From contig DATFYI010000164.1 in assembly GCA_035315125.1 (NCBI GenBank), forward strand, positions 444 to 64,443: a stretch of 64,000 nucleotides of DNA, in the 5' to 3' direction. The stretch's first letter is position 1. The number at the start of each line of letters is the position of its first letter. The notes beneath the pieces were generated by a model that saw nothing but the letters and a program-made list of their open reading frames with translations, did not search any database and was not told the DNA's origin. This document shows, in pieces, positions 20,484 to 61,120 of the stretch. A program made the position numbers and the translations under genes. Source of the DNA: Anaerolineaceae bacterium. Lineage in GTDB: Bacteria > Chloroflexota > Anaerolineae > Anaerolineales > Anaerolineaceae.

Positions 20484-21581
20484 ATGTTTAACCGAATCCT
20501 GGTTCCACTGGATGGGTCGACGCTGGCAGAGCGAGCGATCCCTCACGCTGAGCAGTTTGCTCGCATCTTTGGCTCAAGTATTATTTTGCTGCAGATCCTT
20601 GATCCTACTTCCTATCATGAAAACCCGAATGCTGTAGATCCCTTGAGCTGGCAAATTCGAAAGGCCGAGGCCGATATGTATATGAAAGGGATCGCTGCAC
20701 GGATTCGTGAAAACATGGGCGTAAGCGCGTCTGATTCCAAAGATATACATAGCTCACAAAGCACAGGCCAGGATGAAAAAAAGGCCCACGTAACCTATTC
20801 GATTCGGGAGGGCAAAACGGCAGAAAACATCGTCAATTTTGCTCAAACAGAAGCGATCGACCTGCTTGTTATCAGCACGCATGGTTCGGGCGGGTTGAGC
20901 CGCTGGAACCTCAGCAGTGTCACTCAAAAGGTGATCAACCTGATTTATCTGCCAGTGCTCATCGTGCGCGCCTATAACCAACCCGAGACAGAGGATGCCA
21001 GGATTCGCTACCGGCGTATTCTCCTCCCGATCGACAGCTCACGCCGCGCCGAGTGTGCCCTGCCCGCCGGGATTGCCCTGGCACGTGGAGAAAGGTCCGT
21101 GCGACCGGCATCTAAGGCAAATAACCTTTTACCTCAAGACTCTGCGCCGGCTACCTCATCATTCCAAACAAAGCTGATCCTGGCCGCCGTGATCAAGCCG
21201 CCGGAAATTCCCATCCCCGAACCTTACCCCGTTGAGATTGAACGCCTCTCTGAACAATTGATTCAGGTCAGTCGTGAAACGGTTAGTAATTATGTGAATG
21301 AGATGAAAAAGCGCTTATCGGTAGATTGTGAGGCTTGCGTGGTTGAGAACAAAAGCGTAAATTCCGCCATTCAGGAATTAGCCAGCCAGGATCAGGACAT
21401 CGACCTGGTCGTGCTGTGTGCTCACGGTTATACAGGGCAATCCAACTGGCCTTATGGAAGCGTGGCTCGCAATTACATGGAGCATGGCACCAAACCCGTC
21501 CTGGTCATTCAGGATGTAGTGCGATCCCAGGTTCTGCCAACTACGGCAGAAATTGCCGCCGAAAAATCCGGGGGACGTTGA
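20484..21581 (+). CDS. tandem universal stress protein (two UspA domains with a linker)
   Basis: MFNRILVPLDGS...DLLVISTHGSGGLSRWNLSSVTQKV and RILLPIDSS...DLVVLCAHGYTG...GSVARNYMEHGTKPVLVI. Confidence 0.88.
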   Translation: MFNRILVPLDGSTLAERAIPHAEQFARIFGSSIILLQILDPTSYHENPNAVDPLSWQIRKAEADMYMKGIAARIRENMGVSASDSKDIHSSQSTGQDEKKAHVTYSIREGKTAENIVNFAQTEAIDLLVISTHGSGGLSRWNLSSVTQKVINLIYLPVLIVRAYNQPETEDARIRYRRILLPIDSSRRAECALPAGIALARGERSVRPASKANNLLPQDSAPATSSFQTKLILAAVIKPPEIPIPEPYPVEIERLSEQLIQVSRETVSNYVNEMKKRLSVDCEACVVENKSVNSAIQELASQDQDIDLVVLCAHGYTGQSNWPYGSVARNYMEHGTKPVLVIQDVVRSQVLPTTAEIAAEKSGGR

Positions 21582-21583
21582 GC

Positions 21584-24500
21584 GTGCTAAAAGACCCCAC
21601 CAATCAGGCAGAGGAGCGAGAGCTTGTTTCCGGCGCGAATTCCTCTGCCTTTAAAACTGACCAGATTCGAGAATTGGTAAATGCCCTGGCAAGCAATTAC
21701 CAGGATGCCAGCCAAAGCAATCCGGGCCGGTTATCGAAAAAGTTCTTGCCAGGACCCGACTTACCCGGGCGCGATCTGGGATTGTATGAATCCTGGCTGG
21801 CCGAAGCACATCGCTACTTTCGAGAAGCCTCCCATCAACAGGTATCGCTTACTTATGCCTCTGAGTGGGTGTTAGACAATTACTACATCATCCGCCAGGC
21901 CCTTCAGCAAATCGATGAGGATTTACCGTCCGGATATTATAGGCAGCTACCTAAGCTGACCGGTGGTCCACTGAAAGGCTATCCCCGCATTTATGCAATT
22001 GCACGCGCAGTGCTTTCATACCAGCATCTATTATTAGATCCAATCGAACTGCGGACCATTCTAATCCAATTCCAGGAACATGTCCCGCTGACGATGGGTG
22101 AGTTGTGGGCCTTGCCGATATTCCTGCGCTATGGTCTGATCGAGTTCCTGGCACACGCACTTATACCGGCGATTCATCCACCCAACCTTCCTGATTTGCC
22201 CGCTGTGCCTCCACATCTGCTGGGGAATGGCGACACTTTATCTTCCTGGTATATTTCCGCAGGAGAAGCAACAAACAATGATAGCGTTGCCAATATCATC
22301 CTAAGCCTGAGAGTCATATCAGAACAGGACTGGAGCGACTTCTTTGAATCTGTAAGTTGTCTGGAACAAACACTGCGGGGAGACCCGGCCGGAATATATG
22401 CCCGGATGGACTTTAAGACCCGCGACCTGTATCGAAAAAAGATCGAACGGCTCTCGTTTGCCACCGGCCGGGAGGAGAACGAGCTGGCCGAGATCACAGT
22501 CAGGTTGGCTGGCTCAGCTGGTATGAGCTTATCTTCAAATTCGGTCCGAAATTCAACCACGAACAATGATCCTGTTTTGCCATCTCGGGCTGTACATATC
22601 GGTGAGTATCTGCTTGGAGAAGGCCAATCTGTTTTAGAACAGCAAATTGGCTATCGTCCGGATGTTAAAACGGTTTTCAAGCGTTGGGTGTTCCGGCATG
22701 CCAGTACTTTTTATCTCTCCAGTATAGGAGTACTTACCGTTTTTATTCTGGTAGCACTGCTCCTTTCAACTGGCCTGCCAAAAATCCTGAATGGCTCTCC
22801 GCTGCAATGGATCATTGTTATCTTTTTAACTGCAACAATGGTGATCCCCCTGCTGACCGTATCAACCAGTTTGGCCAACTGGCTGATTACCCTGATGATA
22901 CCGCCACGTGTTCTACCCAAGCTCGACTTCAAAAGTGAAATCCCCAATCCGTTCCAAACGCTGGTAGTTATCCCGGCCATGATTACCAGCCGCGAGGAAA
23001 TCGATTCACTGGCCCACCAGCTCGAACTGCATTATCTTCGTAATCCTGAACCGGGGCTTCAATTTGCCTTGTTGACCGATTTCCGCGACGCTGATAGTGA
23101 AACTTTGCCCGAGGACGAAGGACTGCTTAAGTATGCCACTGCTAAAATCGAGATCTTGAACAGCAAATACAAATACATTGCTCCTGGCAGTAATACTGAA
23201 CCTGTTCCGGATAACGGCCAGGAGGAGAGCCAGAATGGCAGCAGGCTTTTTTATTTCCTCCATCGCAAGCGCTTATGGAACGCATCTGAAGGCAGGTGGA
23301 TGGGCTGGGAGCGTAAACGCGGTAAGCTGAATGAGCTCAACTTGCTGCTGCGCGGCGGCGGAAACCTGTCATTCATCCCTCTGAGAGGCGAGCTGGGTAC
23401 AAGTACCGACTCTCTGCAAGCTGTGCGTTTCGTCATCACCCTCGACACAGACACTATTCTACCGCGTGGGGCAGCTTGCCGCCTTGCCGGTACGCTGGCT
23501 CACCCGCTTAACCGGGCTGTTTTCGATCAAACAACCGGGCAGGTTATCTCAGGCTACACGGTTCTGCAGCCGCGCATGGAGATCCATCCAAGGAGTGCAA
23601 ATCATTCCTGGTTTACACGCTTCTTTGCCGGAGATACCGGTTTGGACCTGTATACCCTGGCCGTCTCCGACGCCTACCAGGATTTGTTCGGCGAGGGTAG
23701 TTACGTTGGCAAAGGCATTTACGATGCGGACGCATTCGAGCGCAGCGTAGACAGGCATATCCCTGAAAACACCGTGCTCAGCCACGACCTGTTGGAAGGG
23801 CTGATGGGCCGCGCCGGGCTGGTTACCGACATTACCATGATCGAGGACTACCCGCAGAATTACTTCATCCAGGTCATGCGCCAACGTCGTTGGATGCGCG
23901 GGGATTGGCAGTTGCTCCCCTGGTTGTTCAAACCCAATCGTAATGGGCTGGTTTTCTCGCTGATTGATCGCTGGAAGATGTTCGATAACCTGCGCCGCGC
24001 CCTGCTGGCTCCGGCGCTGCTGCTGATCTTCTTCATAGGGCAGATATTCCTACCCGGACTGGCTTGGCTATGGACAGCGGTTGTGCTGGTTTCTCTCGGC
24101 GTTCCTGTATTAACGGGTGCGGCCCGCAGCGTCCTACAAATTATAGGTGGCGGGTACGTAGAGATAGCCCTGCGCCCATTGGGCTGGAACTTGCTGCGCT
24201 GGCTGCTGGCGGTTGCTTTCCTGCCCTACGAAGCCTATATTTCCATCGATGCAGCTCTTACCACACTCTATCGCCTGTTGATCAGTCACCGCAACCTCTT
24301 GCAGTGGACGACTGCAGCCCAAACTGCCCGAGTCTTTGGCTTGCAAACCCGCCGGAATGTTGCCTGGGAGAAAATGGGCGCCTCTACAGTCGCGGCTGTG
24401 ATTCTAGCGGCAGGGATACAGGTCATTTCTGATCTGAGCAGGAATGGGATTGCGCCGGCGCTGACTTACGCTTCAACAGTGCTGCTTCTTTGGCTGTTTT

Positions 24501-27500
24501 CCCCGATCATCGTATGGTGGATTAACCGGCCAATCATCAAACAGGTTGTTCCCTTGACCGATGAACAGGCAAATCTCTTACGACAGGTTGCCAGGCGAAC
24601 CTGGGGCTTTTTTGAACGTTTCGTTGGTCCAGAAGATCATTGGCTGCCGCCCGATCATTACCAGGAGTCACCCGTTGGAACGGTTGCACACCACACCTCT
24701 CCAACCAATATCGGCTTGCTGCTCACCTCGACCCTGGCTGCCTACGATCTCGGTTATTTGGATCAACTGGGGTTGGCCACCCGCCTGGTTACTACAATGG
24801 ACACACTCGACCGGTTGGAGCGTTTCCGCGGGCATTTTATAAACTGGTATGACACGTTAACTCTTCAGCCGCTGCACCCGCGCTATATCTCCACAGTTGA
24901 CAGCGGCAATCTGGCCGCCAGTCTTATTGTCACCGCCCAGGCTTGCAAAACCATGCCGGATGAGCGCGTATTCCGTTGGGATTTATGGCAGGGTTACCTG
25001 GATACACTTTCAAATCTGACTGAGACGCTGACAGGTATGCGCAAGGCCGAGTTCGACCAGCAGCTTGAAGAAATTAACCAACGCATCGCGGCGATACACG
25101 CTGAAATCCTGGCGGTACGGTCTCAACCAGAGCGCTGGTACCCACTTTATGTGAAGGCAAGTGGACCGTTCTGGCAGGATCTTTCCAGCCGCCTGATGAA
25201 ACTGGTGGAAGTGGGTCGCTCTGCTTTCGACTTGATGACATTAGGAAAGCTGCAAGAAGTCGCCGGGCAGGTTGAACGGCATCACAACGCCGTACAACGC
25301 ACGATCAGTGAGCTAGTGCCCTGGATTCCCTTGTTTGAGAATCTCCCCGTGCTGTTCAATGAACCTCAATTCAACCAGAAGATGGCTGAATTGAGAGCCA
25401 ATTTACCCTACAACCTTACACTTGGGCAGGTTCACACTCAGGTCGAGGCGGCTTTACCCGGTATCATCGCCCTGCGTAATTTGTTAGCTGCGGATCCTGC
25501 GCCTGTTGATTCCGTAGAAGTATCTGTCTCATTGGCAATAAACGAGCAAGAACCAATGGCACTGGCATGGCTGGAAGCGTTAGGCCAGGCTCTGAAGCAT
25601 GCGGATACAAATTCGAGTTCGCTGGTAGCACGATTCGCACTCATCATGCGGCGAGCTGAACAGTATGTGAACGAGATGGACTTTCGCTTCCTCTATCATT
25701 TGCAGCGGCGTGTCTTCCACATTGGTTTTAACCTCGAGGCCGGCCAACTCGACCACAACTATTACGATCTGCTGGCCTCAGAGGCACGTATCGCCTCGAT
25801 CATCGCCATTTCAAAAGGAGAAGTGCCGCAGTCTCATTGGCTGCAGTTGAGCCGGCCGGTCACGCGGGTGGAAGGTGCATACGTTTTGCTTTCGTGGAGC
25901 GGGACGATGTTCGAATACCTGATGCCGCCGCTTTTTTTACGCTCCTACCCGGGTACTTTACTGGCAGAAAGCGCCAGGGGAGCAGTCCTACACCAAATTG
26001 CTTATGGTAAAGCCAAGAATGTGCCCTGGGGCATCTCTGAATCCGGTTTTTACCGGTTCGACGCCAATCAGAATTATCAGTACCGCGCATTTGGCGTGCC
26101 CGGGTTGGGCTTCAAGCGAGGTTTGGGTGATGACTTGGTGATTGCCCCGTATGCCTCCCTCATAGCGATTAATTATGACCCCGCGGCTGTGGTTCGCAAT
26201 CTGGCCAACCTGATTGCACACAATATGATCGGGTTATACGGCGTTTATGAGTCGATTGATTTCACAACGGACCGGCTGCTGTTGGATGAAACTTCTGAAG
26301 TCGTGGGCGAATATATGGCACACCATCAAGGCATGATCTTAATGGCGATGGTTAACTTCTTTAACCATGATATTATGGTGCGGCGCATGCACAGCGACCC
26401 ACGCATCCAAAGTGTTGAGATGCTCCTGCAGGAGCAGGTGCCGCAGGCCGTACCAGTGCAAGACCCTTATGCCGAGGATGTGAAGGGTGTGCAGCGTTTA
26501 ACCGTTGCGCCAGTTGAAATCATTCCCTGGAGTGTACCGGTACAAACCCCCATTCCCCAGGTCCACCTGCTCTCCAACGGAAGCTACAATGTGCTGCTTT
26601 CCAATATGGGTGGTGGATACAGCTCCTGGCGTGATATTGACCTGACACGCTGGCAGCCTGACGGTGTGTTGGATTCATGGGGAAGCTGGATCTATATCCA
26701 GGAATTGGAAAAGGAACCACAAAAGAGACGCAGATTGTGGTCTGCCGGCTACCAACCTGTTCCAGGAGACAAGGCGGTAATTCAGGTAACCTACTTTGCT
26801 CACATGGCTGTCTTCGGCCGGACTGAAAATGGCATCACATCCACCATGGAAGTTACCATAGCGCCAGAAGACCCGGTTGAGATTCGCCGCATACACCTGC
26901 ACAATAACCACGATTACTCCCACAACCTGCGTCTGACCTCCTATGGCGAGGTGATTCTGGCCGCCCAGACGGCAGATGCTCGCCACCCCGCCTTCAATAA
27001 GCTGTTTATCGAAAGTGAGTTCGTGCCGGATCTTAATTTGCAAATCTTCATCCGCCGTCCGCGCTCCAATACAGAAACAACCTTGCTGATGGGCCATATG
27101 ATGGTTATCGAAGGTAAGCAAATAATCGCACGGCATGAAGCAGATCGGTATCGCTTTATTGGCCGTGGTCGCAGCTTACACAGCCCAGCTGCCCTGACTT
27201 CGCAGGAGTACCTGACCGGCTCGACCGGTGCGACACTCGACCCAATCTTTGCTCTTGGACAGGAAATCGCGCTGGATCCGCATGAAAGTGCAAATATAGC
27301 TTACCTGACCATTGCTGGGGAGAGCCGTGAAGCAATTATTGCGCTGGCCAGACGGTACAGCAGCTGGACTCTGGTCGAGCGCTCCTTCCACCAGTCTAAT
27401 ATCGCTGCCCAAACATGGCTGGGCAAGCAAGAAATTGATACCCAGGCCTTCAAGGACACCCTGCAGATCCTTTCAGCGTTGATCTATTCATTCAAGGCGG

Positions 27501-30457
27501 TGCGTGCTGCGCCGGAAACGCTCGCAGCCAACCGGCTCGGACAGCCTGGGCTGTGGCGTTTTGGTATCTCTGGCGACTATCCCATCCTATTGGTAGAGTT
27601 GGACAATCCAAAACAGGTCGACTTGGTGAGGGAAGCCCTGCAGGTGCACACATATTTGCGCAGCCGCCGGTTTATGATGGATGTGGTGATTCTCAATCGC
27701 CAGCAGACCGATTACGGCGCTGAATTAAATGGAATGCTCTACCGCTTGATCAACCGAATGAATGGTGAAGAGTGGTTAAACCAGCGCGGAGGAATCTATA
27801 TCCTGTATGGCGACCAGATGGGGTCTGAGGAAAGCAAACTGCTCAAATCAGCCGCGCGAGTGCTGCTTATTGGCGCCAATGGACCGTTGAGCAGTCAGAT
27901 GCCGGGCTATTCAATCCCGGTGCACCATTTACCAGAGTTTACGCCAACCCGGCAGGCAGAAGTGGCTGCGAGAGCAGCGTCTATCCCTCAGGCTTATCCT
28001 TTGGGGAAAAGAAGTGAGCTAAAGTTCTACAATGGTTACGGAGGCTTTAGTGCGGATGGGCGCGAATATGTCGTCGACCTACCAGCCGGTAAAAACACCC
28101 CGGCCCCGTGGGTTAATGTAATTGGCTATCCGGAATTTGGTTTTATGGTCAGTGAAACTGGCAGCCAATGCACCTGGGCATTGAATAGCGGTGAAAACCG
28201 CCTGACCCCCTGGTCAAATGATCCGGTGCGCGATCCAACCGGCGAAGCGCTTTACTTGCGAGATGAGGAAACTGGCGAGGTGTGGACGCCCACGCCCCTG
28301 CCCTCCGGATCAGGTCAGCCTTACCGCGTAACTCATGGAGCGGGTTATACCATCTTTGAGCACAGCTCCCACGGCCTCCGTCAGCGTCTTTCTCTTTTTG
28401 CCAGCCCGGAAGACCCTGTCAAAATTATTCATCTGACAGTAGAGAACACCTTAGACCGTACTCGCCGGATTACTGCTACGCAGTATGTCGAATGGGTTTT
28501 GGGCAGCACTCATGCCACAAGCCAGGCCTATATCATTCCGGAATATGACTCAGCCCTGGAATGTTTAATGGCCAGCAACCCCTACAATGCCGAATTCGGC
28601 ACAAGAGTGGCGTTCCTGATTGCCAGCAAAACGGTGCACGGGTTGACCGCCGATCGTACGGAGTTCCTGGGACGCGGCGGAACAGCCGCCTTCCCGGCGG
28701 CTCTGCATCGTCTGGGACTGGAAACCCGTATCAGTCCTGGTGAAGATCCCTGCGCGGTTTTGCAGTTACACCTCGACCTGCTGCCTGGCGCCAGCGAAGA
28801 GATTTATTTTGTGCTCGGACAGGGAAATGATAAAGATCACGCCCTGTCCCTGGCCAAGAAATACCATACCCCGGCCTACGTGGGTGCAGCCTACGAACGC
28901 ACGCATGTATTTTGGGATCGTTTGCTCGGCACTATTCAGGTACATACCCCCGAACCGGCCAGCGATTTGATCCTTAACCGCTGGATGTTATACCAGACCC
29001 TGTCTTGCCGCATTTGGGGCCGCACGGGCTTTTACCAATCCAGTGGAGCGTTCGGTTTCCGCGACCAACTGCAAGATGTTATGGCCCTGCTGGCTATCGA
29101 CCCGGCCATCACACGCAGCCAGATTATCAACGCAGCTCAGCGCCAGTTCGAGCAAGGAGACGTGATGCACTGGTGGCATCCGCCATCAGGTCGTGGAGTG
29201 CGAACGCGTTTTTCGGACGACTTGCTATGGCTGCCTTACGTCACCGCTCTGTATGTTGAAGTAACTGGCGACAAGAGTCTTCTTGATGAAAAGGTACCCT
29301 TTCTTCATGCCCCGGAACTTGCGGAAGGTGAGGACGAGCGCTATGGCAAATACCTGCAGACAGAGCAGACCTTCTCATTGATGGATCACTGCTTACGTGC
29401 AATCGAGAAGGGCGCCAGTACTGGTCCGCACGGTCTGCCGTTGATCGGTACCGGCGATTGGAATGACGGCCTGAACCGCGTTGGAGAAAATGGGCAGGGC
29501 GAGAGCATCTGGTTGGCCTGGTTCTTGTGCGATGTATTAAAACGCTTTGCCACGCTCTGTGAACAAAATGGAAAAGTCGAAACAGCACAGCATTTCAAGT
29601 CAATGGCAGAGGTGTACGCAGCTGCGGTAGAGAGGTCCGCCTGGGATGGGGCCTGGTACCGGCGGGCTTACTATGACGATGGGACGCCGCTCGGTTCGAT
29701 CCAGGAAACAGAATGCCAGATCGATACAATTGCCCAATCCTGGGCAGTCCTGAGTGGGGCAGGCGATCCCCAGCGCAGCAGCCAGGCCATGCAATCGGTG
29801 TTGGACCGTTTGATATGCCCACAGGAGCGCCTGTCACTGCTCTTTACGCCGCCATTCGACAAAACCCCGCATGACCCGGGCTACATCAAGGGCTACCTGC
29901 CCGGAACTCGTGAGAACGGTGGGCAGTACACGCATGCTGCCACCTGGACTGCCTGGGCTTTTGCAAGCCTGGGGAATGGAAAGCAAGCTGGGGCGCTGTT
30001 TGACCTGCTCAATCCCATCTTTCAGTCTGACAGCGCAGAAAAGGTCGCTGTATACCGCGTCGAGCCGTATGTGGTTTGCGCAGATATCTACAGCAGAGCA
30101 CCCTATGTGCGCCGCGGTGGCTGGACCTGGTATACCGGTTCAGCGGCCTGGATGTACCGCCTTGGTCTGGAAGCTATGCTTGGCTTCCACAAAATTGGAG
30201 ATACCATTCACATTAACCCGGTCATTCCACCGACCTGGGATGGATTTGAGATTCGTTATCAATTTGGAGAATCTGTGTACTTTATTCAAGTACACAACCC
30301 CGAGCATGTGGCAAGCCATGTCCGGCAAATGCTGCTGGATGGGCAGCCGCTGAAAGGATCCATTCCGCTGGTCGACGATAAACAGAAACATCAGGTAGTT
30401 GTGACAATGGGAGATTCTGATCATTCCTTAGTTGACATGAATATTTTCTCGTGCTAA
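21584..30457 (+). CDS. cyclic beta-1,2-glucan synthase-like protein (GT84 glycosyltransferase + GH94 phosphorylase modules, ~2957 aa)
   Basis: N-terminal TM region; GT domain with ITLDTDTILP and QRRRWMRGDWQLL; C-terminal GH94-type region with GTGDWNDGLNRVG, RENGGQYTHAATW. Size matches Cgs/NdvB/ChvB. Start taken at the in-frame GTG at 21584, 2 nt after the usp stop. Confidence 0.85.
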   Translation: MLKDPTNQAEERELVSGANSSAFKTDQIRELVNALASNYQDASQSNPGRLSKKFLPGPDLPGRDLGLYESWLAEAHRYFREASHQQVSLTYASEWVLDNYYIIRQALQQIDEDLPSGYYRQLPKLTGGPLKGYPRIYAIARAVLSYQHLLLDPIELRTILIQFQEHVPLTMGELWALPIFLRYGLIEFLAHALIPAIHPPNLPDLPAVPPHLLGNGDTLSSWYISAGEATNNDSVANIILSLRVISEQDWSDFFESVSCLEQTLRGDPAGIYARMDFKTRDLYRKKIERLSFATGREENELAEITVRLAGSAGMSLSSNSVRNSTTNNDPVLPSRAVHIGEYLLGEGQSVLEQQIGYRPDVKTVFKRWVFRHASTFYLSSIGVLTVFILVALLLSTGLPKILNGSPLQWIIVIFLTATMVIPLLTVSTSLANWLITLMIPPRVLPKLDFKSEIPNPFQTLVVIPAMITSREEIDSLAHQLELHYLRNPEPGLQFALLTDFRDADSETLPEDEGLLKYATAKIEILNSKYKYIAPGSNTEPVPDNGQEESQNGSRLFYFLHRKRLWNASEGRWMGWERKRGKLNELNLLLRGGGNLSFIPLRGELGTSTDSLQAVRFVITLDTDTILPRGAACRLAGTLAHPLNRAVFDQTTGQVISGYTVLQPRMEIHPRSANHSWFTRFFAGDTGLDLYTLAVSDAYQDLFGEGSYVGKGIYDADAFERSVDRHIPENTVLSHDLLEGLMGRAGLVTDITMIEDYPQNYFIQVMRQRRWMRGDWQLLPWLFKPNRNGLVFSLIDRWKMFDNLRRALLAPALLLIFFIGQIFLPGLAWLWTAVVLVSLGVPVLTGAARSVLQIIGGGYVEIALRPLGWNLLRWLLAVAFLPYEAYISIDAALTTLYRLLISHRNLLQWTTAAQTARVFGLQTRRNVAWEKMGASTVAAVILAAGIQVISDLSRNGIAPALTYASTVLLLWLFSPIIVWWINRPIIKQVVPLTDEQANLLRQVARRTWGFFERFVGPEDHWLPPDHYQESPVGTVAHHTSPTNIGLLLTSTLAAYDLGYLDQLGLATRLVTTMDTLDRLERFRGHFINWYDTLTLQPLHPRYISTVDSGNLAASLIVTAQACKTMPDERVFRWDLWQGYLDTLSNLTETLTGMRKAEFDQQLEEINQRIAAIHAEILAVRSQPERWYPLYVKASGPFWQDLSSRLMKLVEVGRSAFDLMTLGKLQEVAGQVERHHNAVQRTISELVPWIPLFENLPVLFNEPQFNQKMAELRANLPYNLTLGQVHTQVEAALPGIIALRNLLAADPAPVDSVEVSVSLAINEQEPMALAWLEALGQALKHADTNSSSLVARFALIMRRAEQYVNEMDFRFLYHLQRRVFHIGFNLEAGQLDHNYYDLLASEARIASIIAISKGEVPQSHWLQLSRPVTRVEGAYVLLSWSGTMFEYLMPPLFLRSYPGTLLAESARGAVLHQIAYGKAKNVPWGISESGFYRFDANQNYQYRAFGVPGLGFKRGLGDDLVIAPYASLIAINYDPAAVVRNLANLIAHNMIGLYGVYESIDFTTDRLLLDETSEVVGEYMAHHQGMILMAMVNFFNHDIMVRRMHSDPRIQSVEMLLQEQVPQAVPVQDPYAEDVKGVQRLTVAPVEIIPWSVPVQTPIPQVHLLSNGSYNVLLSNMGGGYSSWRDIDLTRWQPDGVLDSWGSWIYIQELEKEPQKRRRLWSAGYQPVPGDKAVIQVTYFAHMAVFGRTENGITSTMEVTIAPEDPVEIRRIHLHNNHDYSHNLRLTSYGEVILAAQTADARHPAFNKLFIESEFVPDLNLQIFIRRPRSNTETTLLMGHMMVIEGKQIIARHEADRYRFIGRGRSLHSPAALTSQEYLTGSTGATLDPIFALGQEIALDPHESANIAYLTIAGESREAIIALARRYSSWTLVERSFHQSNIAAQTWLGKQEIDTQAFKDTLQILSALIYSFKAVRAAPETLAANRLGQPGLWRFGISGDYPILLVELDNPKQVDLVREALQVHTYLRSRRFMMDVVILNRQQTDYGAELNGMLYRLINRMNGEEWLNQRGGIYILYGDQMGSEESKLLKSAARVLLIGANGPLSSQMPGYSIPVHHLPEFTPTRQAEVAARAASIPQAYPLGKRSELKFYNGYGGFSADGREYVVDLPAGKNTPAPWVNVIGYPEFGFMVSETGSQCTWALNSGENRLTPWSNDPVRDPTGEALYLRDEETGEVWTPTPLPSGSGQPYRVTHGAGYTIFEHSSHGLRQRLSLFASPEDPVKIIHLTVENTLDRTRRITATQYVEWVLGSTHATSQAYIIPEYDSALECLMASNPYNAEFGTRVAFLIASKTVHGLTADRTEFLGRGGTAAFPAALHRLGLETRISPGEDPCAVLQLHLDLLPGASEEIYFVLGQGNDKDHALSLAKKYHTPAYVGAAYERTHVFWDRLLGTIQVHTPEPASDLILNRWMLYQTLSCRIWGRTGFYQSSGAFGFRDQLQDVMALLAIDPAITRSQIINAAQRQFEQGDVMHWWHPPSGRGVRTRFSDDLLWLPYVTALYVEVTGDKSLLDEKVPFLHAPELAEGEDERYGKYLQTEQTFSLMDHCLRAIEKGASTGPHGLPLIGTGDWNDGLNRVGENGQGESIWLAWFLCDVLKRFATLCEQNGKVETAQHFKSMAEVYAAAVERSAWDGAWYRRAYYDDGTPLGSIQETECQIDTIAQSWAVLSGAGDPQRSSQAMQSVLDRLICPQERLSLLFTPPFDKTPHDPGYIKGYLPGTRENGGQYTHAATWTAWAFASLGNGKQAGALFDLLNPIFQSDSAEKVAVYRVEPYVVCADIYSRAPYVRRGGWTWYTGSAAWMYRLGLEAMLGFHKIGDTIHINPVIPPTWDGFEIRYQFGESVYFIQVHNPEHVASHVRQMLLDGQPLKGSIPLVDDKQKHQVVVTMGDSDHSLVDMNIFSC

Positions 30458-33791: not shown

Positions 33792-36188
33792 TTAAGCCGG
33801 GTTATTTCTAATTTCCAGGTATGCATGAAAAGGAACATTAATTTTATAACGTTCAAATCCAGTTTCTTCAGTAACGCGTTTTGCAAGTTTCTGTATTACT
33901 TTTTTTCTGCTTTCATCATACACAAATTCAAAGCTATTTATATCCGTTTCCAATCCTAGAAACGTTGAATCAATTAATAAATCAATTATAGAATCCACAT
34001 TTGACTTAGGAATTTTGACCTTTTCTAATAATTCTTGGATCTCATTTCTTGAAATAATCTCTTTTCCACCGGCAAATTCATAAAGAAAATCTTCAATTCC
34101 ATCAAATTGTGTTTCGGTCTCAGCTAGTAAGGAACTAAAAGCCAATTCGGAGTAGCTATCTTCAGCTTGAAGAATATCTTTTTCTTCAATTTTTTTGTTT
34201 TTATGATTAACAGCATTATTCAATGCATTTTTACAAAGAAAAATTAAATCCCTTGGCCTAGGAATAATCCGACTAACCAGATATTCTTTAATTGGCAAAT
34301 TATTGATTTTTGAAACAAAATACTTTTCCCAAATATTGTCTATGTCAATCTCTGTAGATGAACTTAAGAATCGTTCTTCTATTATTCGTTGTAATAATTG
34401 ATGGTCATTCCAATCCATTCTAGTAAAATTTAATTTATCGCTTTCTCTTGCATTGGACTTAACATAAGAAAATATATCACTTCGCAAGAAAATTATTAAC
34501 GATAAATGAACCGGTGCAAATCTCATCTTTTGTTTATTAAATTCATCGGCAATAGTTTGCCCACAACTAAGTAATCCGAATAGAAAATCTGTTAAAAGTT
34601 TAATGTTTTCCCCCTTTTCCCATGCTTTATCTAGATTGTCTATTAATATTATTACTTTATTTTTAGTTTCTAAAATGTTGCCAAGGAGTTCTCGCAATTC
34701 GCCTAAAATCTTAATGTGGAGTATTTCACTCACCTTGGCACGCTGTTCTCTAATATTGAATTGCAAGTTTAATCCGCATAAATTATCAATAGCATATTCC
34801 ATTCGCCAGGTAAAATCTTGTTTTATAAATGGTTGATTATTTTCAATAAATGTTATTAAATTTTTCTCCTTTTCTGTGGAATCTATATATGAAGGCTTAT
34901 TATTAATATTGCTATAAACAAGATTCGCCAATTCAGTATATATAAGAAATTTCCATAAGCTTTCAATCAGATAACCGGGGTCTGCTTTCGTAATGTTCGA
35001 ACTTAATAGACGCAGTACACCCTCAAGTTCATAATCAATGGGCTTAATAATGCACACTAAATTTCGTTTATCTAATTCGAGTTGCTTAGCGATTTGGAAC
35101 AAATTCGCCGTTTTTCCGCTCCCCTTTCGACCAATATATATTAAGTATTTTTCTGCTTTTAGAGCTTGAAAATAAGAAGCAGTAGTGACAAAATAATCGC
35201 TTAATTGCTGTTCTTCATTCTCAGCCACATATTCACCGATATTAATTTTTTGCAAATCAGCCATCAATGCTAAATTTGTTTTTCTTTCTTGCCCTTCTTC
35301 ATCAATAGTAAAAAATTTATTTTTAACCCAAGGTAGCCAAGTTTCTAATTTAGCCTTTAATTCAGAAGCAGTTTCATGAATATAAAGGAGGTCTCGAAAA
35401 TCAATTGGCGAATTAAATGGTGAATGGGCTAACATTAGTAGCGGTTTACCAAGACCAAATGCTATTCCTGAAATGATGGAATATTTCGAATTTTGTATTA
35501 GTCCGATATTTTCTTCTCTGTCTTCACTTATAAAATGGGCTATTACTCCAAACGAAGAATAGACATTTTGAGCATACCAGATTAATGGTTGCCCAGATAT
35601 TTCTTTGTTGTCATCAACTACTAATCGTATTTTCGACTCTTTTAAACTTCGATTAAGCTCAATGCTAGCATCAGTATTTACTTCGCTTTTTAAGTAAAAC
35701 AAGAATGGCTTTCTATCCTGATATTGAGATTCAAGGTTTTCGAAAATCCTTTTATAAATGGTTGACTCTAAATCTAGATAAGGTTGTTCTATAAAGAAAT
35801 TTCTTGTAAGATCTACGGAGTTTTGATATGCCGAGTATGCAATAGTTGATAATAACCCCAATTTTTTATAATTCTTTACAGATTCATCTAAAGATGTGTC
35901 CAGCGTTATCCAAATTCTTTTATTTCTTGAAATCGCATATCCAAGTTCAAATAAAACGTTCCTATTTAAAATTGTTAAATCACAGATGAAAATATCACAA
36001 TCATCTATTGATTTACATATTTCAGAAATGATTTCCTTCCCAGTGTTATTTAATGTTTTCCACCCAACCATATTGACATAATCACTTGCACAGCCATTTA
36101 CATTGGATATAAACAATTCAATGGATTCTCCCCTATCAAGAGGCTTCTCGGGATATGCAACAAAACATTTTGCACTTGTCATTTCCAT
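33792..36188 (-). CDS. tandem TIR-like (Cap12/Pycsar-effector-type) domains fused to a P-loop NTPase and a helical C-terminal region (798 aa); candidate defence protein
   Basis: Domain 1 has CFVAYPEKP...DIFICDLTILNRNVLFELGYAISRNKRIWI. Domain 2 has FLFYLKSE...AHFISEDREEN...SIISGIAFGLGKPLLML. Walker A is YIGRKGSGKTANL and Walker B is KVIILIDNLDKAWE, followed by an arginine-containing IIPRPRDLIFL segment. Codon usage is very AT-rich. Confidence 0.7.
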   Translation of the reverse strand: MEMTSAKCFVAYPEKPLDRGESIELFISNVNGCASDYVNMVGWKTLNNTGKEIISEICKSIDDCDIFICDLTILNRNVLFELGYAISRNKRIWITLDTSLDESVKNYKKLGLLSTIAYSAYQNSVDLTRNFFIEQPYLDLESTIYKRIFENLESQYQDRKPFLFYLKSEVNTDASIELNRSLKESKIRLVVDDNKEISGQPLIWYAQNVYSSFGVIAHFISEDREENIGLIQNSKYSIISGIAFGLGKPLLMLAHSPFNSPIDFRDLLYIHETASELKAKLETWLPWVKNKFFTIDEEGQERKTNLALMADLQKINIGEYVAENEEQQLSDYFVTTASYFQALKAEKYLIYIGRKGSGKTANLFQIAKQLELDKRNLVCIIKPIDYELEGVLRLLSSNITKADPGYLIESLWKFLIYTELANLVYSNINNKPSYIDSTEKEKNLITFIENNQPFIKQDFTWRMEYAIDNLCGLNLQFNIREQRAKVSEILHIKILGELRELLGNILETKNKVIILIDNLDKAWEKGENIKLLTDFLFGLLSCGQTIADEFNKQKMRFAPVHLSLIIFLRSDIFSYVKSNARESDKLNFTRMDWNDHQLLQRIIEERFLSSSTEIDIDNIWEKYFVSKINNLPIKEYLVSRIIPRPRDLIFLCKNALNNAVNHKNKKIEEKDILQAEDSYSELAFSSLLAETETQFDGIEDFLYEFAGGKEIISRNEIQELLEKVKIPKSNVDSIIDLLIDSTFLGLETDINSFEFVYDESRKKVIQKLAKRVTEETGFERYKINVPFHAYLEIRNNPA

Positions 36189-36241
36189 CCTCCGACAATC
36201 CAGTATGTGGGGGGCGTTGGCAATACGCCATCCCTCTTGCC

Positions 36242-36418
36242 TTACTTTTCGTAAGCTATTGGGTTATCTTTCTTGTTTTCACCATTCCATCCCGCACATA
36301 ATATCCCCTCAGGCACAATGAAAATTATTTGAGGCTCTGCTGTTACAAGAATTGGCAAACGGCGGTAAATAAAAGAATATATCCCACCTGGAATAAACGA
36401 ATGCCGATAATTAGGCAT
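36242..36418 (-). pseudogene. decayed Y1 (IS200/RAYT-type, COG1943-like) transposase fragment
   Basis: MPNYRHSFIPGGIYSFIYRRLPIL resembles the conserved N-terminus MPNYRR..vPGGtYFFTv..rR.piL of REP-associated tyrosine transposases. The HUH region is missing and the fragment is about 58 aa. Confidence 0.4.
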
Positions 36419-48652: not shown

Positions 48653-49399
48653 TCAGTTGAATGCGAACAGGGCTCCTTGCGAAATGGGCGTCAGATAGGC
48701 GCATTGTTCTAAAGTGAGATAGATTCCGTCTACCTGATTCCTGGTTGCCCTGTATTCCCTTGCGTGTTCTTCTGACCAGAAGAATACCGAATTCCGTCAG
48801 TAAGAATCGATGATCGTTCGCCCGGTGAAATGTTCCCAATCAACATCTGGCATAAATACCAATGCCCGCGCGTCCTGCTCATGCACTGAAAATTGCATGC
48901 CACTATCTACGGTAATATGCAGGATCTGATTGCAGTGTTTACAATTTGTTTCTATTTCAACCGATAGCCATGCGTTTCGTAATTGTCCTTGCACGAAGGA
49001 CGCCGCCAGTGCGTCCTCTGCTCAGGCACCGTACAATTGTTCCCCTGAGCTGAATTTCAAATGGTGAGGTGTAGGCTCCACCGTCAGCGGGTAGGCCCAG
49101 GCGACGGCGTTTTGCTCGTTTCGCGCCAGAAAGAAAAGCTTACTTTCCAGCTCTTCCAAAATCTGCTGAACGGATTCGAGCGGTAATTTCAACTTTTCGG
49201 CGATATACTCCGGCTCTAAAGGCATTTGCCTGTCTACCAGTTCTTTGACTACAAAATACCGCACTCGCTGGTGTGCATCTGTCATGAACGCTAACCTTTC
49301 CTGGCTATGTTCTGGAATTTGCGTCAGATGCTTTTTCCAGGAGTCCTGTGGTATTTCCAATATTTGCCGGCCTCGTCCAAGCAAAATCTTTTCATCCAT
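48653..49399 (-). CDS. MerB (alkylmercury lyase) family protein with two in-frame TGA codons at the catalytic Cys positions; candidate double selenoprotein
   Basis: Three co-linear same-frame segments (49399-49025, 49021-48800, 48796-48656) are separated only by TGA at 49024-49022 and 48799-48797. LYGA-TGA-AEDAL aligns with MerB LYAWCALDTL (Cys96/Asp99). SY-TGA-RNSVFFWS aligns with FCCHVHFFAS (Cys159). Each TGA is followed by a hairpin. Confidence 0.6.
48767..48784 (-). promoter_or_regulatory. SECIS-like hairpin after the second in-frame TGA
   Basis: RNA UUCUUCU-GGUC-AGAAGAA. The GGUC tetraloop begins 19 nt after the UGA; E. coli fdhF has 18 nt and a GGUC loop. Confidence 0.5.
48996..49018 (-). 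promoter_or_regulatory. SECIS-like hairpin after the first in-frame TGA
   Basis: RNA GAGGACGC-ACUGGCG-GCGUCCUU, an 8-bp stem starting 3 nt after the UGA. It can be redrawn with a bulged A and a UGGC loop. Confidence 0.4.
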
Positions 49400-49421
49400 C
49401 CCGATTCCCTCCAATTCTGGT

Positions 49422-49781
49422 TTAGTCCGGCGGGTTTACCTCAAACATGCGGTGGCTGGCATCCGCCCCATAATCCATCCCATATATTTGCTTAATTGCC
49501 GTAATCTTTTCCAGGGTCTCTTCACTGAAAGCGGATTTTCCTTCGAAGGCATGCAGCACAATTCCTTCCAGAAGATCTCCCAGCGATAGATCCAGATATT
49601 CGGCCAGGGCTTTGAGCACTTTAAGCATTCTCTCTTCAATTCGAACGCCCGTCTGGACTCGTACAACCTGATATTTGTGGGAATTCAATTCGTGCGGACT
49701 ATTTTCTTTGGACATATCCCTGACCTTTTTGCTATTTGCGACTCTTTGGCGCAGAATGTTATTTTGGTACAATGATAACAT
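49422..49781 (-). CDS. hypothetical protein upstream of the merB-like gene
   Basis: ORF ends 22 nt before the merB-like ATG. A likely start is the ATG at 49715 (MSKENSPHE...). No motif recognised. Confidence 0.45.
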   Translation of the reverse strand: MLSLYQNNILRQRVANSKKVRDMSKENSPHELNSHKYQVVRVQTGVRIEERMLKVLKALAEYLDLSLGDLLEGIVLHAFEGKSAFSEETLEKITAIKQIYGMDYGADASHRMFEVNPPD

Positions 49782-58078: not shown

Positions 58079-59917
58079 CTAGGCGATTCCAGGCGGTAAG
58101 GCGGTCTCGTTTGGCGCTCCACCGATGTGCGGCTCGGGTGGGGTAGTATCCGGCACGGGATCTGGGGTCATATATTTGGCCAGGAATGAATCGGCGTCCA
58201 CATCGCTGCGGATGGCATCTTCGTAGGCGCCAGAAGCGGCCGGCTGCTGATAAAGGAGCGGGCTGCGCACACCGAACCATTCGAAAAAGCGGTGGATGCC
58301 TGTCAGCAAGCTGTAACGGTATTCCTGCATGCGCAGGGACTGCCATTCAACGATGGTGGCCATGTGCCCCTGGACACGGGCTTTCTTACGGACGATGCGG
58401 TGGATCTGGTTTGGCTCGCGGAATCCGAGCGGCGACAGCAGCAGCGTATGCGCCAGCAAAGCCAGGGTTGTGAAAGAAATCAGCACCACCCAACCGCCTT
58501 CCGACCATTTCCCGATGATCTGCATGATGAAAACGATACCTGATAGAACCGCCGCGAAACCGGCTGCGAACGCGCCCCATTTGAGCGCCCGCCCGCTGAA
58601 ATGCTTGAGAATGTGCTGGCGGATGGCCAGGCCCATCACCATGATCGGCATGAACACACCCACGCCGTAGTATGGCACTGCCAGGGTCGTCTCGCCGTGC
58701 ACCAACAGCATGATGATGACGGCGATGCCGAAGGTGATGGTCACCGAACGGGTGAAGGTGCCGCGCGGGTCACGGTAAACGATGATCTCGGGAATTTCAC
58801 CAATGGAGACATCCCGCCACTCGGTGGCCTGGGCGTCCTGGAAAGCGGTCATCGAGGCGCCTGCCAGCAGCAGCACCGCCAGCAGCTGATAGACCCAATA
58901 CAGGATATTACCGCCCGGCAGCTGGGTGAAACCGATGAAGGCCAGGTTGCCAACCAGGCTGCGCCCCAGCGATCCATCGAATACGTTGAAACGGATGGAA
59001 AAGGCCGTCAGCAGGAAGGTGGTCAGGCCGCCGTAGAACAGAAAAGAGGTCTGGACGAAGCGCCCGATGCCGGCTTTGCCGCTGTAGAAATTCCAAATCT
59101 TACCCAGGCGAGGCATGTGAACCTTGCCCCATTTGACCAGTTTGACGTCTTCATCGATCACGAACTGGATGCCATTCGACATGGCTTCCAGCCCGGTCAG
59201 GGCCACCATGCCTTTCATAGAAGCGGTCAGCAGGGCCATGAGCGCCTGAGCCAGGGTGGGCGTTTGGGGGGCTATGGGGGTTGCCGCAGGCGGTACGCCG
59301 CGCAGGTTGGCGACCACCAGACCGACAGCCAGAGTGATGGTCAGCATCACAAAGATGCCCAACATCGTGAACATCACCCTGGATGATTCGCCCCGGCCGC
59401 GAATGGTGAGATACCAGGTAATGGCGGCCAGGCTGGCCCCAATCAAGAAATGCCAGATCCAGTTCGTTCCGTAGGCATTCAGGATCGAAAGCAGTTGGTC
59501 TCCCCCGGACAGAGCCGATACCACAATGGTCAGCACGTAGTCCTGGATCAAGGTCACTGCCACGATCAGGCTGAGGGTGGGTTTGAGATAACGCATGGAG
59601 GCGGTATAAGACCCGCCGCCCTCGTTGAAAACCCCTAACGAGTACATGTAAAGCCCCCCAAAGACGATATTGGCAAAGGCGATCACACCCGCGGCAATGT
59701 AACCATAATGCTGCAGGCCGTACGGGTGCAAAGCGCTCATCAGCTCGCCGGTGGCATAAAAGTAGGAGGTGAAATAGTCGGCGCCAAACAACGCCAGGGC
59801 TGCCAGCAGGCCGATCTGGCCGGCGCCATGCACATGGGCGTGTTCCTTGTTTTCACGCGGAGATGCTTTATAAGCGAGAAATGCGATCACCAATAAGAGC
59901 AGTATTGAAAAGAGCAT
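58079..59917 (-). CDS. APC-superfamily permease, KimA-like (possible K+/H+ symporter)
   Basis: 612-aa polytopic protein with a cytoplasmic C-terminal domain. GGGSYTASMRYLKPTLSLIVAVTLIQDYVLTIVVS parallels my recollection of B. subtilis KimA GGGAYIVSKENLG...LLVDYILTVAVS. Confidence 0.55.
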   Translation of the reverse strand: MLFSILLLLVIAFLAYKASPRENKEHAHVHGAGQIGLLAALALFGADYFTSYFYATGELMSALHPYGLQHYGYIAAGVIAFANIVFGGLYMYSLGVFNEGGGSYTASMRYLKPTLSLIVAVTLIQDYVLTIVVSALSGGDQLLSILNAYGTNWIWHFLIGASLAAITWYLTIRGRGESSRVMFTMLGIFVMLTITLAVGLVVANLRGVPPAATPIAPQTPTLAQALMALLTASMKGMVALTGLEAMSNGIQFVIDEDVKLVKWGKVHMPRLGKIWNFYSGKAGIGRFVQTSFLFYGGLTTFLLTAFSIRFNVFDGSLGRSLVGNLAFIGFTQLPGGNILYWVYQLLAVLLLAGASMTAFQDAQATEWRDVSIGEIPEIIVYRDPRGTFTRSVTITFGIAVIIMLLVHGETTLAVPYYGVGVFMPIMVMGLAIRQHILKHFSGRALKWGAFAAGFAAVLSGIVFIMQIIGKWSEGGWVVLISFTTLALLAHTLLLSPLGFREPNQIHRIVRKKARVQGHMATIVEWQSLRMQEYRYSLLTGIHRFFEWFGVRSPLLYQQPAASGAYEDAIRSDVDADSFLAKYMTPDPVPDTTPPEPHIGGAPNETALPPGIA

Positions 59918-59944
59918 AGATTTTTCCTTGAGGGTGCAGAGATT

Positions 59945-61120
59945 TCAGTCTTTCGATAAAGTAAAAAAGGCTTTTTCGAGCATCTCTAATTCGGCCAATA
60001 AATATTTGCGAGTGGAATGGCTCAGGCGGGTATCCTGCGCCACCATGGCCTTCTGCTGGCGAGCGGCCCGCACCACAAAGGCCGGCACAAACATGATCCG
60101 CCCGCCCGGGATGACTTCGAAGTCGTGGGTGCGCAGCTGCAGGTCCTGGTCGTCGAAATAGGGCAGGCTCAGGCTGAGGCCGCGGTTGAGGTCGTGGGCG
60201 GCTGCTCGGCGCTGGATGGTCTGGATCATTTCCATAGTCTCGTATTGGGCCAGGGCCCGGCCCTGGTTGATCAACTGTCCCAGCATTCCGTAGCGTTTCT
60301 GCTGGTAGAGCGGGTCTGCCACGATGTAGGGCGCCAGTGAAACCGCCCCATGCAGGATCGAGAGGTACATTTGCATCGAGGTCAGATAGCTTTCGGCTTC
60401 ATTTACGGAGTTGACCAGCAAATGACACTCGTTGTCAAAAGCGACCCACTGCGGCAGGTAAAACCGGCGGGCAGCCGGCACAAAGGGCACCTGTAACTGG
60501 CCGCGCTGTTCATTGCGGGCGGCGTCTTCGACTACCGCATCGCCGGCAGCCAGGATAGCCGATTCGGGGTCGTCCTGACTGGCCAGCGGGATGGTGGGGA
60601 TTTCTTCGCCCTCAGCCGCCTGGTAGGTCACCGAGCGTCCGGAGGGCAGCAGGTTGTAAACCATGTGAATGACCAGAGCGTAGCGCAGCAGACCGGCGCT
60701 GACCGCCACCGGGCGTTCCGAGCATTCTTCCAGCTCAGCCAGGCTCTGGCGCAGCATAGTGCGCAGGTCGATGCGTGTCAGACGGTTGATGACGCCGCCG
60801 ATGGTTTGCTGGCGGCTTTCGCTGGGAATTGTCTGCGGAGCCTGCCTGCTTTGTGGGCCACGTGCTGCAATTTCCACCACCACCCGGTCCGGTAGGCTGA
60901 AGCTGGCCTGAAGCTGGTTGTGCAGGATGGCGTCGGCCAGTTGGCGCGCCTGGGCCTCCAAAAAACGCTGCACCAGGGTGGGCTGGACGTCGAATAGGCG
61001 CTGGGCGGCCTGATATTCCAGGGTGAGTGGGGAATTAGGGTCAGCCAACAAATGAGAGGGGTGGCTTTTTAATAGAGCGTGCGGAACTGCGGTCTTTTTG
61101 GCCATTACGATGCTATCCAA
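59945..61120 (-). CDS. hypothetical protein (391 aa)
   Basis: Long ORF overlapping the upstream gene by 8 nt. No motif recognised. Confidence 0.5.
   Translation of the reverse strand: MDSIVMAKKTAVPHALLKSHPSHLLADPNSPLTLEYQAAQRLFDVQPTLVQRFLEAQARQLADAILHNQLQASFSLPDRVVVEIAARGPQSRQAPQTIPSESRQQTIGGVINRLTRIDLRTMLRQSLAELEECSERPVAVSAGLLRYALVIHMVYNLLPSGRSVTYQAAEGEEIPTIPLASQDDPESAILAAGDAVVEDAARNEQRGQLQVPFVPAARRFYLPQWVAFDNECHLLVNSVNEAESYLTSMQMYLSILHGAVSLAPYIVADPLYQQKRYGMLGQLINQGRALAQYETMEMIQTIQRRAAAHDLNRGLSLSLPYFDDQDLQLRTHDFEVIPGGRIMFVPAFVVRAARQQKAMVAQDTRLSHSTRKYLLAELEMLEKAFFTLSKD

Follow-up and report, generated by a model that had tools for sequence, protein, structure and literature searches.

A 64,000-nucleotide stretch of an Anaerolineaceae bacterium genome (GenBank assembly GCA_035315125.1, contig DATFYI010000164.1, positions 444 to 64,443), referred to here as the window, carries a gene related to merB, the gene for organomercurial lyase, in which the reading frame is interrupted by two TGA codons. 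A first-pass annotation of this DNA had proposed that two open reading frames (ORFs) and the codons downstream of them share one frame, split only by TGAs, and that both TGAs are read as selenocysteine (Sec). The region 49414..48653 (-), translated on the reverse strand, is indeed a single frame with exactly two internal stops, both TGA, and the motifs quoted from it, LYGA(TGA)AEDAL, NCKHCNQILHITV and SY(TGA)RNSVFFWS, were all found in the translation of the window. The start of the gene is likely the ATG at 49399, the most plausible candidate because a GGAGG lies just upstream; the TTG at 49414, where the listed ORF begins, is less likely. The features of the locus are collected in Table 1.

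Table 1. Positions of the MerB-like gene and its associated features in the window. Sec assignments are predictions; positions after a UGA are counted from its U.
Feature	Position	Strand	Details
Putative MerB-fold selenoprotein coding sequence	48653..49399	-	248 codons plus TGA terminator; ATG at 49399-49397
In-frame TGA, codon 126, predicted Sec126	49022..49024	-	Corresponds to MerB Cys96; from homologous-locus codons and profile alignment
In-frame TGA, codon 201, predicted Sec201	48797..48799	-	Corresponds to MerB Cys159; from homologous-locus codons and profile alignment
Terminator TGA of the MerB-like gene	48655-48653	-	Read from sequence
Shine-Dalgarno-like GGAGG	49408..49412	-	8 nt upstream of the ATG; read from sequence, function presumed
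Hairpin 1, resembling a Sec insertion sequence (SECIS)	48984..49002	-	+23 to +41 from UGA-126
SECIS-like hairpin 2	48767..48784	-	+16 to +33 from UGA-201
Small upstream ORF	49422..49781	-	119 aa from first ATG (97 aa in public gene calls); ends 22 nt before the selenoprotein start

Evidence for membership of the MerB family came from searches in which both TGAs of the query were replaced by Cys. The window protein matches the Pfam MerB family (PF03243) over residues 105-234 with a score of 64.4 bits, against a gathering cut-off of 27. It misses the NCBIfam equivalog model for the MerB-like selenoprotein SaoL (NF040728; 61.1 versus 140 bits) and those for bona fide MerB (NF009710, 50.2 versus 193; NF033555, 43.7 versus 200), and release 20 of NCBIfam holds no model whose cut-off it reaches. 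By sequence, the best match in the PDB is MerB2 (entry 5C17). When a profile of 21 family members was aligned with R831b MerB, codon 126 fell on Cys96, D129 on Asp99, C153 on Cys117, codon 201 on Cys159 and R202 on Cys160, and D129 proved invariant in the family. These data support the earlier claims that the TGAs coincide with the catalytic Cys columns and that an Asp is conserved after the first of them. The earlier claim of a match to MerB is likewise borne out by the Pfam score and the active-site columns, with one small correction: sequence similarity to MerB begins only at about residue 52, leaving the first ~50 residues without a MerB counterpart at the sequence level.

Additional support for a MerB fold came from an AlphaFold2 model of a natural relative, P0008, a Ser/Cys member of the family that shares 58% identity with the window protein (predicted local distance difference test score 90.2, predicted template modelling score 0.88). 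When the PDB was searched with this model, which describes P0008 rather than the window protein itself, the only full-length matches were MerB and MerB2. The E values were 3e-10 to 2.5e-9 for crystal structures and 2e-6 for one nuclear magnetic resonance entry, and template modelling scores normalised to the target ranged from 0.71 to 0.82. The next matches were generic winged-helix regulators, in which ~85 residues were covered.

Comparative evidence that the two TGAs are functional came from homologous loci. A protein search returned 44 relatives of the window protein, the full-length homologs being 43-72% identical to it. About 27 of the 44 are full-length with Trp at both sites, nine stop exactly one residue before site 1, two have Cys at site 1 and stop exactly before site 2, and three have Ser and Cys. 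At the DNA level, 160 homologous loci were compared, 80 from GTDB species genomes and 80 from metagenome contigs. TGA occupies both sites in 157 of them, spanning several phyla and 46-72% protein identity, so the placement of TGA at these two positions is far beyond chance. Site 2 is TGA in 158 loci, and the three departures from the TGA/TGA arrangement are L027 (TGT/TGA), L105 (TCG/TGT) and L109 (TCC/TGC). The three segments lie in one frame with no further in-frame stop in 159 of the 160 loci, in agreement with the earlier argument that random decay would not be expected to produce such a pattern. The sites alternate between TGA and Cys codons (L027, and L161 and L162, described below) or are occupied by Ser and Cys (L105, L109).

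At least 375 GTDB species have a confirmed family member; these fall mainly in the Anaerolineae and other Chloroflexota, the Acidobacteriota and the Desulfobacterota. Because the patterns used to fetch loci included FFWSEEH, which overlaps the second hairpin, the sample may over-represent Sec forms. The picture did not change when 1.84 billion cluster representatives were searched with an HMMER profile and no sequence pattern, which gave 779 matches at E <= 1e-3 and 402 at E <= 1e-10 (representatives of clusters at 50% identity). Among the best 150 matches, 92 end exactly at residue 125 and a further eight exactly at residue 200, seven of the latter visibly with Cys at site 1; the same 150 include only a few Ser/Cys proteins and some divergent paralogs with neither residue. 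The Cys/TGA form was confirmed in DNA at L161 and L162, where the site-2 TGA is followed by ~47 conserved in-frame codons.

Several minor forms of the family are worth recording in their own right. The Cys-site-1/TGA-site-2 subfamily (L161:217-963 and L162:552-1304; proteins P0037, P0038, P0045-P0047, P0050 and P0058) has the same arrangement as SaoL, and L162 retains the TTCTTCTGGTCAGAAGAA hairpin. A rare natural Ser/Cys variant (L105:610-1356 and L109:4216-4968; proteins P0008, P0009, P0011 and P0049) has degraded hairpins; with Ser at the Cys96 position, its lyase activity should be abolished, by analogy with MerB. Full-length divergent paralogs (P0048, P0051, P0053, P0059, P0110 and P0115) carry E/L, G/L, G/G, S/R or S/L at the two sites and, lacking the ligands, may be non-catalytic relatives. 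At one locus a third in-frame TGA (L036:10562-10564) replaces the conserved Trp188 codon (TGG to TGA), which probably reflects a sequencing error or an inactivated copy.

Evidence that the codons beyond each TGA are translated came from an alignment of 143 unique TGA/TGA genes, in which relative synonymous entropy was calculated at columns where the amino acid is conserved. Outside the hairpins, the value for the gene is 0.89 +/- 0.12. Residues C153, H155, C156 and P184 after the first TGA, and G225, Q232, Q241 and F245 after the second, are conserved or invariant, with synonymous entropies of 0.94-1.0. Conserved residues with free codon choice past both TGAs bear the signature of a translated sequence under purifying selection, which excludes both a pseudogene and a gene that ends at codon 125. 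Relative synonymous entropy drops below 0.35 at only ten codons, nine of which lie within the runs 134-138 and 206-210 (mean ~0.17); the tenth is Ser166.

The two runs of constrained codons coincide with the two SECIS-like hairpins. A conserved hairpin follows each TGA, and synonymous variation is strongly suppressed in both. Hairpin 1 has the family consensus CGCCCUU-CGUGC-AAGGGCG, encoding (A/T)PFVQG, and reads (C)GUCCUU-CGUGC-AAGGAC(A) in the window, with U-A in place of the consensus C-G. In the alignment, 94.5% of its cells are paired, and three pairs show compensatory changes, a result matched by 0-1 of 500 shuffles; relative synonymous entropy at codons 134-138 is 0.0-0.33. Hairpin 2, UUCUUCU-GGUC-AGAAGAA, encodes FFWSEE and is the minimum-free-energy structure in the window. 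Its cells are paired in 99.6% of cases across 70 diverse sequences, eight of the ten variant cells being wobble-compatible changes from U-A to U-G, and entropy at codons 206-210 is 0.0-0.15. The Phe codons within it are TTC in 303 of 304 cases and Ser209 is TCA in 151 of 152, whereas Ser204, five codons earlier, is encoded by TCA (45), TCC (44), TCG (29) and TCT (21). Where Sec has been replaced (L105 and L109), the pairing of hairpin 1 is broken, and substitutions almost never seen in Sec loci are present in hairpin 2.

The window uses the standard genetic code. Its G+C content is 51.7%, and many of its large genes end in TGA, including ORFs of 877, 731 and 943 amino acids; among the 160 homologous genes, the terminators are TAG in 65, TGA in 48 and TAA in 47. 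Because TGA terminates both large window genes and 48 homologous genes, a reassigned code was rejected, as the first-pass annotation had anticipated. Genes for the Sec machinery were sought around the family. No tRNA-Sec was found in the flanks of 60 loci. When E. coli SelA, SelB and SelD were used as tblastn queries against the window and ~1.9 Mb of flanking DNA, the only match was to SelD, at L109. This selD gene (L109:1604-2668, +) lies two genes upstream of the Ser/Cys variant on the same strand and has an in-frame TGA at the Cys17 position, so that at least the L109 lineage decodes Sec. One selD neighbour in 160 loci is about what chance would give and is not read as a functional link.

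The correspondence with active-site columns, the alternation with Cys codons, the hairpins and the standard code together support the proposal of Sec recoding at both TGAs. We put at roughly 0.88 the probability that the window gene is a genuine two-Sec selenoprotein with a MerB-type site, Sec insertion itself being what we infer from these patterns. According to this model, one intact gene would yield a 248-residue MerB-fold selenoprotein, with both UGAs decoded by the SelB/tRNA-Sec pathway and each directed by its own short intragenic hairpin a few codons downstream. U126, U201 and Asp129, at the positions of Cys96, Cys159 and Asp99, would then make up a Sec-Asp-Sec active site. The analogy with MerB suggests that a soft metal(loid) bearing a carbon ligand would be held by the two selenolates and that Asp129 would deliver a proton, so that the hydrocarbon is released by protonolysis of the carbon-metal bond. 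That the window protein has such carbon-metal(loid) lyase activity is, on this analogy, close to an even bet; that organomercurials are its physiological substrate is doubtful. Selenols are more acidic and softer than thiols; their hold on mercury and similar metals should therefore be tighter, and they could be effective at lower substrate concentrations. Given that the gene stands alone, outside any mer or SAO operon, its role is probably something other than classical MerA-coupled mercury resistance.

Several observations weigh against this model. Both hairpins are short, and in folding energy they do not outperform shuffled sequences (z -0.3 to -1.7). After the first TGA in the window, the minimum-free-energy fold is a different hairpin, and the loop of hairpin 1 lies ~8 nt further from its UGA than in the E. 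coli model. Hairpin 2 is without any double compensatory change, because it is almost invariant, and Rfam gave no match at the locus or elsewhere in the window. No tRNA genes were found in the 64-kb window, and no sel genes were detected among the 17 window ORFs scanned with Pfam, although 64 kb of a genome is uninformative on this point either way. The locus that carries selD, L109, has the Ser/Cys form of the protein and not the Sec/Sec form. With respect to catalysis, no MerA-type partner or acceptor is encoded nearby. Very tight binding between mercury and selenium would hinder product release, and turnover on mercury is uncertain for that reason.

An alternative, which we regard as unlikely, is that the protein is a real two-Sec, MerB-fold selenoprotein that is not a lyase, and acts instead as a very high-affinity binder or chaperone for soft metals or selenium, as a redox-active diselenide, or as a winged-helix sensor. 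The absence of a conserved partner gene or operon, and of mer genes nearby, is consistent with such a role, as are the natural Ser/Cys variants and the paralogs with neither nucleophile, which by analogy with MerB would not be lyases. The N-terminal domain of the P0008 model alone also weakly resembles MarR-type winged-helix regulators, and one variant lies near selD. However, the full MerB catalytic constellation is kept, including the invariant proton-donor D129 and the equivalent of the structural Cys117, and it is the whole protein, not just the N-terminus, that superposes on MerB; the proximity to selD, as noted above, carries little weight.

Bacterial Sec insertion competes with release factor 2, and two serial UGAs would compound the inefficiency. 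It could be, then, that UGA-126 mainly terminates translation to give a 125-residue winged-helix protein, with minor, possibly selenium-dependent read-through acting as a selenium-responsive switch. The 125-residue fragment is the product in every public gene call, but short database entries are gene-caller output and say nothing about which protein is made. Moreover, the 122 codons downstream are under protein-level purifying selection with synonymous variation free, both TGAs have a dedicated conserved hairpin, and the fragment would lack the entire MerB core. We consider such a switch quite improbable.

Decoding of the TGAs as one of the standard amino acids (Trp, Gly or Cys), through a reassigned code or suppression, is less credible still and is suggested by the 27 database proteins with Trp at both sites. 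For these proteins (P0001-P0007, P0010 and P0012-P0029), the codon at both sites is TGA in the DNA, and the Trp residues evidently arose because the gene caller applied genetic code 4 to short contigs, an artefact that could mislead family alignments. In addition, the carriers belong to standard-code phyla in which TGA terminates genes of this very family, the two positions carry Cys codons in some loci and line up with metal-binding cysteines, and a reassigned codon would need no SECIS-like hairpin. Finally, a MerB homolog inactivated by two nonsense mutations, which the two in-frame stops might suggest if a single sequence were taken alone, is refuted by the recurrence of both TGAs across phyla, by the near-complete absence of other in-frame stops and by residue conservation with free synonymous sites downstream, L036 with its third TGA being the sole candidate for decay.

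Genomic context gives few further clues to function. Neighbours of the gene in the window include, by Pfam, a GH1 glycosidase, a cupin, a PMT_2-like membrane protein, a RibD_C protein, an L,D-transpeptidase and a glyoxalase-fold protein. Clustering of neighbours in 161 loci revealed no conserved operon, only generic, non-recurrent families and one small upstream ORF; mer operon genes (merR, merT/P, merA) are absent near the window gene and are not recurrent in the 160 loci. In 21 loci, the window among them, the small ORF or a homolog of it (~108 amino acids) lies directly upstream on the same strand, typically with a 4-nt overlap with the start. The small ORF is probably co-transcribed with the selenoprotein gene. 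It has no Pfam or NCBIfam match; by eye only, it resembles a ribbon-helix-helix fold, and it may be a regulator or partner. A promoter-like site is present at 49808-49780, the number of such sites being no higher than expected by chance. In three public assemblies of the window organism, the MerB-like gene is called as a 125-residue product without a Pfam match, followed by a ~475-nt unannotated gap.

Three other regions of the window were noted. A second candidate for genes joined by a TGA, at 58079-61120 (-), consists of a 391-residue ORF without a Pfam match and a 612-residue ORF with an amino-acid permease domain, in the same frame and separated by the TGA at 59945-59947. Because the downstream ORF has its own AAGGA and an ATG 27 nt later, these are two adjacent genes and not a selenoprotein. 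The 391-residue ORF (59945-61120, -) and an 823-residue ORF at 33792-36263 (-) both lack a Pfam match at E <= 1e-4. A stop-to-stop ORF of 3036 codons at 21347-30457 (+) overlaps the end of a universal-stress-protein gene.

In its boldest form, the interpretation would make this the first Sec-Asp-Sec enzyme family, a widespread, hitherto unrecognised, stand-alone, mer-independent organometal lyase of Anaerolineae, Acidobacteriota and Desulfobacterota, a proposal that we offer tentatively and think rather unlikely to hold in full. Were it true, the enzyme might act at trace levels in soils and sediments, for example by demethylating methylmercury or by breaking other bonds between carbon and a metal(loid), and the mercury or metalloid cycle would have a biological sink that is so far unaccounted for. 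Surveys built on merB would not see such a sink, since gene calls always reduce the gene to a 125-residue fragment. The protein would also have the first MerB-type site to use selenols for both metal ligands, with a bearing on carbon-metal bond activation and product release. Organisms with the gene are abundant in soils, sediments and sludge, settings in which methylmercury both forms and breaks down, and this makes the protein a testable candidate for mer-independent demethylation. For annotation, the family would add a distinct and widespread member to the prokaryotic selenoproteins, and one of the few with two Sec residues. In the public gene calls examined, the gene ends at residue 125 or 200 or bears false Trp, so surveys of merB diversity and of mercury-cycling potential in metagenome-assembled genomes would miss or misread it. 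With a dedicated family model, hundreds of annotations would be put right.

The hairpins can be compared with the SECIS element of E. coli fdhF, which has a GGUC loop at +22 to +25. Both hairpins of the window gene are likewise short, intragenic and 3' of the UGA, and the GGUC loop of hairpin 2 lies at +23 to +26. Unlike fdhF-type elements, they show no bulged U, hairpin 1 has the loop CGUGC, and two independent elements occur in one short mRNA. The protein is predicted to share its whole-protein fold with MerB (EC 4.99.1.2; R831b, PDB 3F0O/3F0P) and MerB2 (5C17), and by alignment it shares the constellation of U126, D129, C153 and U201. It differs from MerB in having ~15% identity, no mer operon, ~50 extra N-terminal residues, selenols in place of both thiols, and Arg in place of Cys160.

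The closest parallel is SaoL, the MerB-like "selenocysteine-assisted organometallic lyase" (NF040728; Haft & Gwadz, bioRxiv 10.1101/2022.07.06.499078; J Bacteriol 2023). SaoL has a single Sec, in a CU dipeptide aligned to Cys159, with the Cys96 position still occupied by Cys. It is the marker of a nine-gene SAO operon that is confined to anaerobes, the majority of them Firmicutes, and occurs in ~45-52 of 15,511 species (10.1101/2022.07.06.499078). The window protein resembles SaoL in being a predicted PF03243 selenoprotein with Sec at the Cys159 position and the Asp99 equivalent retained, and in having database entries that routinely end at a UGA. In contrast to SaoL, it has Sec at both ligand positions, its motif is SY-U-RN rather than CU, and its family lacks the SAO neighbourhood, the small upstream ORF being the sole recurrent neighbour; the taxonomic range of the family differs as well. 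Model scores, motif and gene context place the protein outside both SaoL and true MerB. Reviews from 2022 and 2026, the latter cataloguing 119 prokaryotic selenoprotein (sub)families, list SaoL as the only MerB-like entry, and the text of the BSepDB paper does not mention MerB. In the literature covered, which did not extend to Haft & Tolstoy 2025 (PMC12013261), no report was found of a MerB homolog that has two Sec residues or that places one at the Cys96 position. A selenoprotein in the MerB family has thus been known since the description of SaoL in 2022/2023, while the Sec-Asp-Sec form appears to be new, belonging to a large and apparently undescribed family that gene-finders end at the first Sec codon.

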